Counted from the first letter of the stretch, positions 3,339 to 35,663 are shown. The stretch: DNA of 64,000 nucleotides from an uncultured Alphaproteobacteria bacterium (GCA_963741605.1 CAVUII010000002.1:732662-796661); one strand, 5' to 3'. Numbers and translations: made by a program. The notes: generated from the sequence alone by a model not told the origin.

Positions 3339-3692
3339 ATGATGGCGTTTAACCCAATTTCGATTACGGCAGGTCCGGACCGCGACGATGATCGCACCCC
3401 CGGCGTTGGCCTTGCCACGCGCACGCGGCCCAAAACCAAAAAGCCCAGCCAATATAAAGTGTTGCTACTCAACGACGATTACACCCCGATGGAATTTGTC
3501 GTCCATGTGCTGAAAGCGTTTTTCCAGATGGATACCGAACAGGCCACGCGGGTGATGCTGCATGTCCACCAAAAAGGCGTCGGTGTGTGCGGTATCTTTA
3601 CGTATGAAGTGGCCGAAACCAAGGTAAACCAGGTGATGGACTTCGCCAAAAAGCACCAGCACCCGCTGCAATGCACGTTGGAAAAGGCTTGA
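3339..3692 (+). CDS. clpS: ATP-dependent Clp protease adaptor ClpS
   Basis: [17 protein letters not shown] and HPLQCTLEK motifs. Confidence 0.95.
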
Positions 3693-4432
3693 ACGCTCCA
3701 TCGCAAAAAGGGGCCGCCCTGATCATAGGAGCCGGTGACGCGACCGGCGGGGCGATTGCCCGCGCCTTTGCAGCCGAAGGCTACACCGCTTGCGTCAACC
3801 GTCGTCCTCGCCATGCCGAAACGCTAGAGGCGTTGGCACAGTCGATCCGCGATGAAGGATTCCAAGCCCGCTCCTTTCCCGCCGATGCGCGCGATGAAGA
3901 AGCGATGGTGGGGCTGATCGACACCGTTGAACGTGAAGTCGGCCCTATCGACGTGGCAGTGTTCAATATTGGTGCCAATGTGCGCTTCAACGTCACCGAC
4001 ACAACTGCGCAAGTGTATCGCAAGGTTTGGGAAATGGCCGCCTTTGCCGGGTTCTTGATGGGTCGCGAAGTGGCCAAGCCTATGATCGTGCGACAGCGCG
4101 GTACAATTATCTTTACAGGGGCGACTGCATCCATTCGCGGCGGTGCAGGATTTTCCGCATTTTCCGGTGCAAAGGCGGCGCTGCGTATGCTTGCCCAATC
4201 GATGGCGCGCGAACTGGGTCCGCAAGGCATTCACGTTGCGCACAGCATTATCGACGGCGGCATCGACACCGAATTCATCCGCAGCATTCGCCCCGATTTT
4301 GAGGATGCAAAGGCCAAGGATCTGGTGCTTTCTCCCGATGCGATTGCTACGGCCTATGTTGCGCTTCACAACCAACATCGCAGCGCCTGGACGCATGAAC
4401 TGGATTTGCGGCCTTGGGGTGAGAGTTTTTGA
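3689..4432 (+). CDS. Short-chain dehydrogenase/reductase (probable TTG start)
   Basis: [44 protein letters not shown]. Confidence 0.88.
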
Positions 4433-4442
4433 CCAAAAACGC

Positions 4443-4502
4443 CGTCGCCCCGTGCTTGACACGGGGCTTGGCTTTATTGCTGGCAGCACTGAAAAAGCCT
4501 AA
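4443..4502. repeat. Left part of a REP doublet (REPIN) split by IS30; contains the left 40-bp direct repeat (4463-4502)
   Basis: CGTCGCCCCGTG-CTTGA-CACGGGG hairpin; intact relative at 35579-35663. Confidence 0.8.
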
Positions 4503-5487
4503 CCCCGGGTGTGGATTCACATTCGAAGTGCAACGGTTGGATAAAGGCTTCTGCTGGAGTTTGGAAGCCGAGACATTTTCTTGGAGTATTATTGTAGTTA
4601 GCGATTATCGCGTTGAAGCGGGCTTTTGGCAGGTTTACGATGTCGGTTTTTCTGGGGAGTGCGCGTCGGAGGCGTCCAATGGCGTTTTCGACGCTTCCTT
4701 TTTGCCACGGCGCGTGTGGATCGCAGAAGTAGGTCTGGATGTTGAGCAGAGTAGAGAGCTGCTGGTGTCGGTAGAACTCGGTGCCGTTGTCGAAGGTGAC
4801 GGATTGGCGGAGGTTTGGCGCGAAGGGTTTGAGCATTTGGACGAGGCTTTGGGCGACGGGATCGGCCTTAAGGTTGGGTTGTGGGAGGGCGATGGTGAAG
4901 CGGGAATGGCGTTCGTGAGCGATCAGGATGGCGGGCCCTGGCTTTGAGAAGAGCATGCAGTCGGCTTCCCAATGGCCGGGCGTTTGGCGTTCAGCGATGT
5001 GTGCGGGGCGGTCGTGTATCGAACATTTTCCGTCGTTTCGGGGCCATCCACCTTTGGTGCGCCATCCGCGTTTGATTTTGGCGCGGGGTAGATAGAGCCG
5101 CCATTTGGTGTCGTTGGTGCGTTTGAGCTGGGTGTAGACGAAGCGGTAGATGGTCTCGTGACTGATGACCTTGTGGCCTTCTTCGCGAGCAAGGCGGCCA
5201 GCGATCTGCTCGGGCGACCAGCCTGCTGTCAGGCGTTTGAGGACAGTCTCGCGCAATGCGTCGTCGCGTTCGAGCTTGTTGCCGGTCCAGCGGCGGGCGG
5301 CAGTCAGCGCCTCGGCATAAGCTGGCTGGTAGCCGATCTTACGCCCGGTATTGCGCTTCAACTCCCGCGCGATGGTTGATGGCTGGCGATCCAAAGTTGC
5401 AGCGATTTGCCGGATCGATTGCCCGTCTTCATGAAGACGGGCAATCGAGCAGCGCTCTTCAAGCGAAAGTTGTGTGTATTTTGACAT
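4474..5487 (-). CDS. IS30-family transposase; reads through the element end and stops in target DNA
   Basis: N-terminal HTH (RQPSTIARELKRN); DDE motifs GHWEAD, TFDNGTEF, QKGSVEN. Confidence 0.95.
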   Translation of the reverse strand: MSKYTQLSLEERCSIARLHEDGQSIRQIAATLDRQPSTIARELKRNTGRKIGYQPAYAEALTAARRWTGNKLERDDALRETVLKRLTAGWSPEQIAGRLAREEGHKVISHETIYRFVYTQLKRTNDTKWRLYLPRAKIKRGWRTKGGWPRNDGKCSIHDRPAHIAERQTPGHWEADCMLFSKPGPAILIAHERHSRFTIALPQPNLKADPVAQSLVQMLKPFAPNLRQSVTFDNGTEFYRHQQLSTLLNIQTYFCDPHAPWQKGSVENAIGRLRRALPRKTDIVNLPKARFNAIIANYNNTPRKCLGFQTPAEAFIQPLHFECESTPGVRLFQCCQQ

Positions 5488-5531
5488 GGCACCACCTGTG
5501 TGAGGTGTTGCACTTCGTTTGTGAACTCAGG
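4503..5531 (-). mobile_element. IS30-family insertion sequence (left end uncertain within 4503-4512)
   Basis: Imperfect 23-bp inverted repeats at 4512-4534 and 5507-5529 (19/23, GAAGTGCAAC core); transposase inside; exact 40-bp flanking direct repeats. Confidence 0.9.
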
Positions 5532-5594
5532 GGGGCTTGGCTTTATTGCTGGCAGCACTGAAAAAGCCTAATCCGTGTCAAGCACGGGGTGACG
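5532..5594. repeat. Right 40-bp direct repeat (5532-5571) plus right REP arm
   Basis: GGGGCTTGGCTTTATTGCTGGCAGCACTGAAAAAGCCTAA is identical to 4463-4502; followed by GTGTCAAGCACGGGGTGACG. Confidence 0.85.
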
Positions 5595-5615
5595 AAATTA
5601 AGGGAAGCGTTTCTC

Positions 5616-6218
5616 ATGACCAAAAACCTAGAATTCCTGTTCGATTTCGGCGGACCTAACAGCTATCTCGCGCACAAAATGCTGCCCGATCTGGCCGCGC
5701 GAACCGGCGCGCAGATTACCTACACACCCATCCTGCTTGGCGGCCTGTTCAAACTCACTAACAACCAAGCGCCATTGATGCGTTACGCCGACACCCCGGC
5801 AAAGCGGAATTACGAGATGCTTGAGTTTGACCGCTTTGTGAAAGCGCAACAGTTGCCGTTCACAATGAACCCGCATTTCCCGATCAACTCGCTTTATTTG
5901 ATGCGCGGCGCGGTGGCGGCGCAACATCTGGGTTGCTTCATGCCCTATGTCGAGGCGATCATGGCCGCGATGTGGGAGGATGGAGCAAACACCGGCGACC
6001 TCGCGGTGGTAGCCGGTGTGCTAGACAAAGCGGGCCTAGACAGCGCCGCTATCCTGACCAAAGCCGAAGACGCGGAAGTCAAAGCCGAACTCGCCACCAA
6101 CACCGAAGCCGCCGCCGCGCGCGGAGCCTTTGGCGTTCCGACTTTCTTTGTAGGTGACGAGATGTTCTGGGGCAAGGAGCGGTTGGCGCAGGTTGAGGTA
6201 GCCTTGACCGAATCATAA
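5616..6218 (+). CDS. 2-hydroxychromene-2-carboxylate isomerase / DsbA-like (GST kappa) protein
   Basis: LEFLFDFGGPNSYLA and GAFGVPTFFV...FWGKERL. Confidence 0.88.
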   Translation: MTKNLEFLFDFGGPNSYLAHKMLPDLAARTGAQITYTPILLGGLFKLTNNQAPLMRYADTPAKRNYEMLEFDRFVKAQQLPFTMNPHFPINSLYLMRGAVAAQHLGCFMPYVEAIMAAMWEDGANTGDLAVVAGVLDKAGLDSAAILTKAEDAEVKAELATNTEAAAARGAFGVPTFFVGDEMFWGKERLAQVEVALTES

Positions 6219-6254
6219 TCTTGCACCGCAAACAATTCCCGCTAAAGCCCGAAT

Positions 6255-7538
6255 ATGGACAAAATCATCATTCGCGGCGGTAACCGCCTTAACGGCAAAA
6301 TTCCCATTTCCGGAGCCAAGAACAGTGCGTTGACGCTGCTGCCCTGTGCGCTGTTGACTGACGAGCCGTTGACGCTGCGTAATTTGCCGCGTTTGGCGGA
6401 TATTGACGGGTTCCAGCATTTGATGAACCAGTTCGGTATTTCCACCACCATCGCCGGAAGCCGTCCCGAAGATTTCGGGCGGGTGATGACGTTGGAGGCG
6501 ACGCGGATTACCTCGTCGGTCGCCCCCTATGAACTGGTGCGCAAAATGCGGGCATCGATTTTGGTGCTGGGACCGATGCTGGCGCGGATGGGCGAGGCGA
6601 CCGTTTCGCTGCCCGGCGGCTGTGCGATTGGCAACCGGCCTATCGATTTGCACTTGAAAGCGTTGGAAGCCATTGGTGCGGAGATTGAGCTGGCGTCGGG
6701 CTATGTAAAGGCGATTGCCCCCAAGGGCGGCTTGCCCGGTGGCAGCTATACCTTCCCCGTGGTGTCGGTCGGCGCGACCGAGAATGTCTTGATGGCCGCT
6801 GTCCTCGCCAAGGGTACCAGCGTGATCCACAATGCGGCGCGCGAACCCGAAATTGTCGATCTGTGCAATATGCTGGTCGCGATGGGCGCGGAGATTGAGG
6901 GCATTGGTTCCTCCGACCTGACCATCCACGGCAAAGACCGGCTGCACGGCGCAACCTATCGCGTGATGTCTGACCGGATTGAGGCGGGCAGCTATGCTTG
7001 CGCGGTTGCCACGACGGGCGGTGATGTTGAGCTGGTCGGCGCGAACGAACCGGAAATGCAGGCGACGGTCGATGCGTTGCGGTCCGCAGGCGTCACAGTT
7101 GAGGCCGTCAAAGGCGGCCTGCGTGTGGCATCGGACGGCAAGCTGCAACCGCTGACCATCTCTACATCACCCTATCCCGGTTTTGCCACCGATATGCAGG
7201 CGCAATTCATGGCGATGCTGTGTATGGCCGAAGGGGCCAGCGTGTTGACCGAAACCATCTTCGAAAACCGCTATATGCACGTGCCCGAACTCAACCGCAT
7301 GGGCGCGCATATCGAAACCAAAGGCCGCACCGCGATTGTCCACGGGGTAAAGGGCATGACCGGCGCACCGGTGATGGCAACCGATTTGCGCGCTTCGATG
7401 AGCCTGATTATTGCCGGACTGGTCGCCGATGGCCAAACCGAAGTCAGCCGCATCTATCACCTAGATCGCGGTTATGAGCGGCTGGAAGAAAAGCTGCAAT
7501 TGGTCGGTGCCGATGTGGAGCGTGTTGGGGCGGATTGA
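6255..7538 (+). CDS. murA: UDP-N-acetylglucosamine 1-carboxyvinyltransferase
   Basis: [31 protein letters not shown]. Confidence 0.98.
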
Positions 7539-35578: not shown

Positions 35579-35663
35579 CGTCTCCCCGTGCTTGACACAG
35601 GGTTAGGCTTTTAACTGGGAGTGGGAAAAATCAGCCAAGCCCCGTGTCAAGCACGGGGAGACG
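35579..35663. repeat. Intact REP doublet of the family targeted by IS30
   Basis: Perfect 20-bp inverted arms CGTCTCCCCGTGCTTGACAC/GTGTCAAGCACGGGGAGACG with imperfect inner extension. Confidence 0.88.

Follow-up and report, generated by a model that had tools for sequence, protein, structure and literature searches.

The locus described here raises the question of how an insertion sequence of the IS30 family, whose close relatives make 3-bp target duplications, came to lie between two exact copies of a 40-nt sequence. IS30 prefers palindromic targets and possesses a dedicated target-binding HTH. The window, that is, the whole 64,000-nt stretch of DNA from an uncultured alphaproteobacterium that was analysed, carries the element between a short-chain dehydrogenase (SDR) gene (3671-4432) and a gene for a DSBA-family protein (about 5616-6218). 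The repeat finder agreed with the initial annotation that 4463-4502 and 5532-5571 are identical over 40 nt, and the chance of such an exact repeat within 1.45 kb was about 1e-18. With one mismatch (C4503 versus T5572) the direct repeat, D1, comprised 43 nt (4463-4505 and 5532-5574). The two block copies bracket a 1,022-bp IS30-family element, and the whole lies inside a REP doublet, of which the outer inverted arms (I1, 4443-4464 and 5573-5594) were 95% complementary. On the + strand, the left half reads CGTCG-CCCCGTG-CTTGA-CAC (4443-4462), GGGG-36-nt spacer-CCCC (4463-4506) and GGG (4507-4509). The right half follows with the IS (4510-5531), GGGG-same spacer-TCC (5532-5574) and GTG-TCAAG-CAC-GGGG-TGACG (5575-5594). 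The features of the window were as follows.

4443-4466, + strand: left REP arm, CGTCG followed by the core CCCCGTG-CTTGA-CACGGGG (core 4448-4466), supported by I1 and the core motif matches
4463-4506, no strand: left block copy, GGGG, 36-nt spacer (4467-4502) and CCCC, part of D1 and single-copy in the empty alleles
4507-4509, no strand: GGG triplet separating the left block from the right end of the IS
4510-5531, - strand: IS30-family insertion sequence of 1,022 bp, where similarity to 30+ related elements begins and ends
4510-4534, - strand: IRR, GTTGCACTTCGAATGTGAATCCACA on the transposase strand
4474-5487, - strand: transposase ORF of 337 aa, with 326 codons within the IS
5507-5531, - strand: IRL, CCTGAGTTCACAAACGAAGTGCAAC on the transposase strand
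5532-5574, no strand: right block copy, GGGG, spacer (5536-5571) and TCC, part of D1
5572-5594, + strand: right REP arm, TCC-GTG-TCAAG-CAC-GGGG followed by TGACG
35579-35663, + strand: another REP doublet of this family, unoccupied and different in its spacer

The limits of the block mirror each other, CAC/GGGG on one side and CCCC/GTG on the other (a slash marks a junction), so that the block runs between symmetry-related points as had been proposed. The right copy ends TAA-TCC, and the left copy ends TAA-CCCC. The GGG at 4507-4509 corresponds to the CCC that nearly all relatives have beyond the right end, and it is also identical with 5532-5534. In the initial annotation the block had been drawn correctly, while this triplet was left unaccounted for; the IS itself was refined here to 4510-5531.

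The ends of the element were fixed by comparison with its relatives. The 2 nt preceding TGAGTT differed among lineages (CC, TC, AC, CT or GC) and are therefore part of the IS; with these included, and with the conserved inverted-repeat core GTTGCACTT lying 16 nt from both ends, the termini were placed at 4510 and 5531. IRR and IRL agreed at 19 of 25 positions and are thus imperfect 25-bp inverted repeats, which the repeat finder detected as 4516-4534 and 5507-5525. The transposase matched the NCBIfam model of IS30 transposases, NF033563 (3e-71, 240 bits, cut-off 80), and the Pfam domains HTH_38 and rve, which bears out the family assignment made at the outset. The size, in the range of about 1.0-1.25 kb, the one ORF and the imperfect inverted repeats, in the range of 20-30 bp, were also those of the IS30 family. 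The ORF possesses no stop codon of its own: the last 11 codons (PGVRLFQCCQQ) and the TAA (4474-4476) lie in the flanking triplet and spacer, and the earlier observation that the stop comes from the target was thus correct. The search of the plasmid collection gave weak partial matches only, to other IS30 elements.

Compared with IS30 of E. coli and its family, the element was alike in its single transposase of about 330 aa with N-terminal HTH domains and a DDE (rve) core (NF033563), in its length of about 1 kb, in its imperfect terminal inverted repeats of about 25 bp and in the 3-bp duplications of its relatives. It was different in its target, which lies at the edge of a REP hairpin of the host, whereas that of IS30 is the centre of a 24-bp hot spot, and in its ORF without a stop inside the element and its 40-44-bp duplication.

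A separate observation concerned the transposase gene itself. A perfect 34-bp palindrome, TCGATTGCCCGTCTTCA/TGAAGACGGGCAATCGA, was present at 5415-5448, at codons about 14-25, and nearly all relatives have a palindrome in this position. It was kept perfect by paired changes (CGTCTTCA/TGAAGACG, CGGCTTCA/TGAAGCCG and CGGCTTCG/CGAAGCCG), so the structure looks selected. Judged from its sequence, it could be a hairpin in the mRNA or DNA that controls transposase expression, or a putative binding site.

The target was characterized next to the element. The REP core CCGTGCTTGACACGGGG, of 19 nt with a 7-bp stem, had four occurrences in the window against 0.21 expected, at both IS flanks and at 35586 and 35640. 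The doublet at 35579-35663 was as initially described and folded into one hairpin (-31.8 kcal/mol, z -7.2). The reconstructed empty site of the element, a doublet of 84 bp, also formed one long hairpin, with a perfect outer stem of 24 bp (-38.9 kcal/mol, z -10.5), and the 44-nt block by itself was not notably structured (z -1.2). The read depth over 4396-4482 was examined in eight metagenome runs (X1-X8). The left REP together with the adjoining 9-12 nt of spacer (GGGGCTTGGCTTT) stood, in X1 and X4, at 130-160 times the depth of the flanking genes, indicating that the left REP is a high-copy repeat. Since the raised depth continued 9-12 nt into the spacer, what is conserved in this repeat family runs past the REP core into the spacer stem.

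The sequence is thus a short imperfect palindrome, intergenic and of high copy number, and it is paired in inverted orientation around a spacer within a single hairpin. These properties resemble those of REPINs, the RAYT-mobilised doublets, which have two inverted palindromic units of 19-24 nt, a variable spacer, an intergenic position, high copy number and one long hairpin; for the doublet in the window, REPIN is used as a structural description only. The idea that the REP might mimic the IS ends, in the manner of IS30-style targeting of its own inverted repeats, was dropped, as local alignments of the REP with the IS ends were no better than those of shuffled sequences (p 0.35-0.78).

The locus without the insertion was found in public metagenome runs mapped onto 3700-6300 of the window. 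In a 458-nt contig of run X3 and in a contig of run X2, 4504 was joined directly to 5573, giving the dehydrogenase gene, the left REP, one spacer, CCCC-GTG.. of the right REP and the DSBA gene. The X3 contig had 8 differences from the window in 458 aligned positions (about 98% identical). The same IS-free allele was present in run X6, reading ..TAACCCCG and then TGTCAAGCACGGGGTGACGAAATTAAGGGA. The empty alleles show that without the IS the site consists of a REP doublet holding one block, which had earlier been deduced from the doublet at 35579-35663 and was here seen directly. Because three runs carried one block copy without the IS, the block is local target DNA that was duplicated at this site. 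The opposite reading, which the initial annotation had named as an objection to its own, is that the 40 bp are cargo travelling with the element. Its position at the IS ends is all that recommends it, and the IS-free alleles, with the same spacer between the same genes, refute it; in addition, doublets differ in their spacers and the relatives of the element have no such block. We regard cargo as having practically no chance of being the explanation.

The locus was also variable in the doublet itself. In run X1, representing a related strain, it carried a lone REP hairpin (CGTCGCCCCGTGCTTGACACGGGGTGACG), with 4459 joined to 5583. Since X2, X3 and X6 had the full doublet, the REP is polymorphic at this locus, and single-REP and doublet alleles coexist. 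A further 11-nt exact direct repeat, TGACCAAAAAC, at 4430-4440 and 5617-5627, brackets the whole doublet, with one copy across the stop codon of the dehydrogenase gene and the other across the start of the DSBA gene. This repeat could be due to chance, or it could be a trace of the arrival of the doublet.

The insertion sites of related elements showed what the clade ordinarily does. Flanking repeats were scored at 32 related loci, using 90-nt flanks and the IS ends as fixed here. Of the loci compared for their layout, ten were from sphingomonad genomes (71-90% amino-acid identity; Novosphingobium, Sphingomicrobium and other Sphingomonadales), and twenty further loci were reached via two widespread protein variants. 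Both sets displayed a common layout, which in the orientation of the transposase reads left REP, spacer, CCCC / NN-TGAGTTCAC .. GTGAATCCACA / CCC-GNN-TCAAG-NNC-GGGG-TGACG. The ordinary arrangement was confirmed in two isolate genomes, N. colocasiae (L009) and Sphingopyxis panaciterrulae (L139). The flanking repeat anchored at the IS ends was CCC at 26 of the 32 loci, GG at one and none at five. No locus shared more than 8 nt between its 90-nt flanks, and hence no long flanking repeat was found among the 32. In the same comparison, the window copy showed the anchored CCC triplets plus the 40-nt word, within a block of 40-44 bp. The junction of the window copy at IRL (5531/5532, ..CTCAGG/GGGG-spacer) is the ordinary junction of the clade and was present in most loci.

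Accordingly, the 40-44-bp duplication is an infrequent side product of an IS30 clade specific for REP edges and not the rule of the clade. Long duplication as the usual behaviour of the element is contradicted by the relatives. The initial annotation had proposed that copies with short duplications in unrelated targets would speak against its reading; copies with short duplications do exist, but their targets are of the same kind.

The transposase provided a second record of the insertion sites. As the ORF runs out of the IS, the tail of the protein reads the right-hand flank. Homologues of the transposase numbered 6,540 at E<=1e-60, and 137 were compared. The tail was ST-P-(G/V/A)-(S/T)-x-(P/T/A)-G in 126 of the 137, which is the translation of CCC and a REP hairpin, with the REP directly after the right end. 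The REP stems that encode the tails covaried (GGA..TCC, GTG..CAC and GCG..CGC), and the usual stop was the TGA of the REP-flanking TGACG. Within the 90% cluster of the window protein, the tails were PVSSTG, PASSAG, PVSRTG, PVSGTG and PVSNTG, and the three copies compared over the IS-borne part had 1-3 residue differences. The tails varied while the IS-borne part was nearly constant, which indicates that the REP belongs to the target and not to the IS.

The triplet at the right end behaved in the same way. It is mostly CCC, but the codons of variant tails together with the X6 junction GGGA/TGTGG implied TCC, CAC or GAC. Since the triplet varies in this manner, it is derived from the target too. 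Throughout the clade the IS contains no stop codon of its own, and the target REP supplies the stop and at least the last 6 residues; copies beside GGGG-CGACG read through for up to about 45 extra residues. Two proteins, P0001 and P0126, differed from the window protein by 2-3 residues and had ordinary tails, i.e., an ordinary right-end junction. Their records come from the same sources as the window protein, on contigs of 299 kb and 465 kb, and the two are probably other copies in the genome of the window. With 126 of 137 tails encoded by REPs and CCCC/IS/CCC-REP at 26 of 32 loci, the element behaves as a REP-specific IS in the sense of Tobes and Pareja.

An alternative origin of the window copy is that the apical 44 bp had already been duplicated (..spacer-CCCC/GGGG-spacer..), for example by slippage, and that an ordinary 3-bp CCC insertion then took place at the CCCC/GGGG joint. 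This order of events gives exactly the sequence observed, with the CCC/GGG triplets that flank the IS, and calls for the usual chemistry only. However, one more rare event is required, and none of the four IS-free alleles was tandem (a single REP in X1, one block each in X2, X3 and X6). Moreover, the joint CCCCGGGG occurred nowhere else in the window, and the IS would have entered at a distance of 40 bp from the nearest REP core, whereas in nearly every relative one end abuts such a core. A tandem that preceded the insertion is therefore considered unlikely.

Several related copies departed from the common layout. Five tails began with G, meaning that the right end was followed by GGG. At locus L137, where there is a single REP, the IS had entered at its outer edge in the opposite polarity, with a GG repeat. 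In run X8 the order was left REP, GGGG, spacer, CCCC/TGTGG, and in runs X1 and X4 the junction CTCAGG/CCC-GTGTCAAGCACGGGG was found. These junctions, like those of the G-initial tails, are most simply ordinary 3-bp insertions in reverse polarity at the edge of a REP. In X1 and X4 (joints 4461 to 4506 and 5531 to 5573) and at locus L010, the REP core was directly at both ends of the IS, with no spacer. This spacer-less form, REP-GGG/IS/CCC-REP, is the reciprocal of the window structure. It could have resulted from two-site capture with loss of the spacer, or from recombination between two IS copies.

Such forms agree with another origin of the window copy, in which two ordinary insertions of opposite polarity occurred at the inner edges of the two REPs on sister chromosomes, and an exchange within the IS left two blocks. 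The parental junctions are both known (spacer-CCCC/TGTGG in X8 and CTCAGG/GGGG-spacer at most loci), and the reciprocal product, REP/IS/REP without a spacer, is that of X1, X4 and L010. On the other hand, an IS present in few copies would have had to hit the same one of roughly 100-160 doublets twice, and the GGG at 4507-4509 is not accounted for, both parental junctions being ordinary. We consider this double insertion quite improbable.

The reliability of the contigs was also assessed. Short-read metagenome contigs are often chimeric across this IS, and the pairing of flanks in such contigs is unreliable. In metagenome contigs, the same IS flank was paired with differing opposite flanks (L014/L135, L142/L143, L153/L155/L156 and L149/L154/L155); in the first three sets one right flank was joined to different left flanks. 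One flank with several partners means that the contigs are chimeric, or the genomes recombined, across the 1-kb IS repeat. L014, L135, L136 and L138 had been candidates for further odd events; since their right flank was shared among different left flanks, they were set aside as chimeras or recombinants that are unscorable. A metagenome search for odd right-end junctions with the short pattern TGTGAATCCACAN{0,3}GGGG gave at least 120 chance matches, and none of those listed had the IS repeat upstream.

The chimeric contigs of the relatives raise the question of whether the second copy of the block, in whole or in part, or at least the GGG and the CCCC/TCC difference, came from misassembly around the 1-kb IS or from homopolymer errors. 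The odd left junction matched none of the public runs searched, which counts in favour of an artefact. However, the empty alleles place both flanks at one locus, and the left junction, TAACCCCGGG/TGTGG, is no splice of two ordinary junctions. Furthermore, P0127, with the same protein and the same odd tail, is on record from an 832-kb contig. The CCCC/TCC difference could be a homopolymer error, and an artefact of the whole structure is judged very improbable.

The explanation that we prefer, and to which we give about an even chance, is one insertion by the REP-edge-specific IS30 clade, in which the two ends would have attacked the two mirror-image CAC^GGGG steps of the doublet and a bridge triplet would have been carried over. 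In the usual event, one end, usually the right, is joined 3 nt from the REP core at C^CCCGNN on one strand, and CAC^GGGG, 3 bp away on the other strand, receives the second end. The outcome is a CCC duplication and a stop-less transposase ORF that closes inside the REP. In the window copy, the 3' end on the IRL side would have been joined at CAC^GGGG, as ordinarily. For the right end, with CCC set aside, the point of joining would have been the CAC^GGGG step 44 bp away, which lies on the opposite strand where the other REP has its inner edge. Filling of the two 44-nt gaps would then have produced the direct duplication of the apical GGGG-spacer-CCCC. The GGG at 4507-4509 may represent the 3-nt CCC bridge of a circular or abutted-end intermediate (right end-CCC-left end) from an ordinary donor. 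Such a bridge would appear on the + strand of the window as GGG joined to TGTGG, as was observed, and because the right-end triplet of the relatives is mostly CCC, an ordinary donor would supply exactly this triplet. Bending of the DNA, extrusion of the palindrome or a pair of transposase subunits bound to the REPs might bring the two sites together; cruciform-directed cutting, which the initial annotation favoured, would be one possible geometry.

This single-insertion model places both strand transfers beside a REP core, which fits the near-obligate REP adjacency of the clade, and the inverted-repeat duplications of 16-29 bp made by IS1630 and ISMfau-2 are a precedent from the same family. 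Several points weigh against it. There is one example only, with no other long duplication at the 32 related loci. On straight DNA a normal transposase complex would fall far short of spanning 44 bp, so the model has to suppose that the DNA was bent or extruded, and the extra GGG demands an additional assumption. The block copies are unlike at the C-run (CCCC versus TCC), and the evidence is that of an assembly. An attack on a hairpin within the same strand, or a template switch, was also considered and rejected: either predicts an inverted spacer on one side, and the repeat finder gave both spacer copies in direct orientation.

Long duplications have been reported previously for IS30-family elements. 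IS1630 of Mycoplasma fermentans duplicates inverted repeats of 19-26 bp, with 16, 23, 25 and 26 bp in strain M64 (PMC2853133, PMC3317919), and the duplications of ISMfau-2 of M. faucium are 19-29 bp (PMC11062135). The window element is alike in family and in the duplication of an inverted-repeat or hairpin-forming segment of the target, here the apical part of the doublet hairpin. ISMfau-2 also has the repeat core GTTGCACTT 16 bp from the end (PMC11062135). In contrast, the duplications of those elements are long and variable (16-29 bp) at most copies (PMC3317919, PMC11062135), whereas here 3 bp is the rule with a lone exception, and 126 of 137 tails were ordinary at the right end. Furthermore, the target here is one defined repeat family, and theirs are assorted terminator-like repeats.

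The REP-targeting ISs listed in previous surveys belong to the IS3, IS110, IS4, IS256 and IS5 families, and IS30 is absent from the list (PMC1525189; see also PMC8450116); a weak REP association was recorded for the IS30-family IS1655 (PMC1525189). The literature thus agreed with the initial annotation, both on the long duplications of IS1630 (PMC2853133, PMC3317919) and on the families of REP-targeting ISs (PMC1525189). Compared with IS1397 and ISKpn1 (IS3), ISPpu9, ISPpu10, ISPa11 and IS621 (IS110) and ISRm22 (IS4), the window element is alike in its near-exclusive fixed position in the REP and its constant orientation to it (PMC1525189, PMC8450116). It is different in being an IS30 element that enters the base of the stem, whereas those elements enter the loop or the symmetry axis, and in that its transposase gene is completed by the target. 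Targeted literature searches, which covered papers but not ISfinder, brought up no description of REP-specific IS30 elements, of this clade or of a transposase gene that ends in its target REP, and a looser search gave no paper that names the IS30 family; the clade may already have been named.

We tentatively propose, with rather less than even confidence, that the large IS30 clade of sphingomonad genomes is an obligate REP-edge specialist whose gene is closed by the target, and that the two REPs of a doublet can each capture one IS end independently of the other. If this is true, one enzyme would yield a 3-bp duplication, a 44-bp apex duplication or the loss of the spacer, and would remodel REP doublets and clusters; the target REP would supply the C-terminal 6-8 residues and the stop codon. 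The findings suggest that ISs may duplicate or delete parts of REP doublets in this way.

With this clade, IS30 joins the transposase families that home to REP sequences. The clade is a clean natural system, with a target defined to the nucleotide, a strong orientation bias and a reading frame that is closed only in the target. The window copy and its empty allele are a rare documented case of a 40-44-bp duplication with mirror-image limits by an element that normally duplicates 3 bp. Therefore, long duplications at palindromes by IS30-type enzymes, a question since IS1630, are now testable on a simple substrate. The more general result is the behaviour of the clade, namely its REP specificity, target-completed gene and orientation bias, for which the window copy is a useful natural test case.
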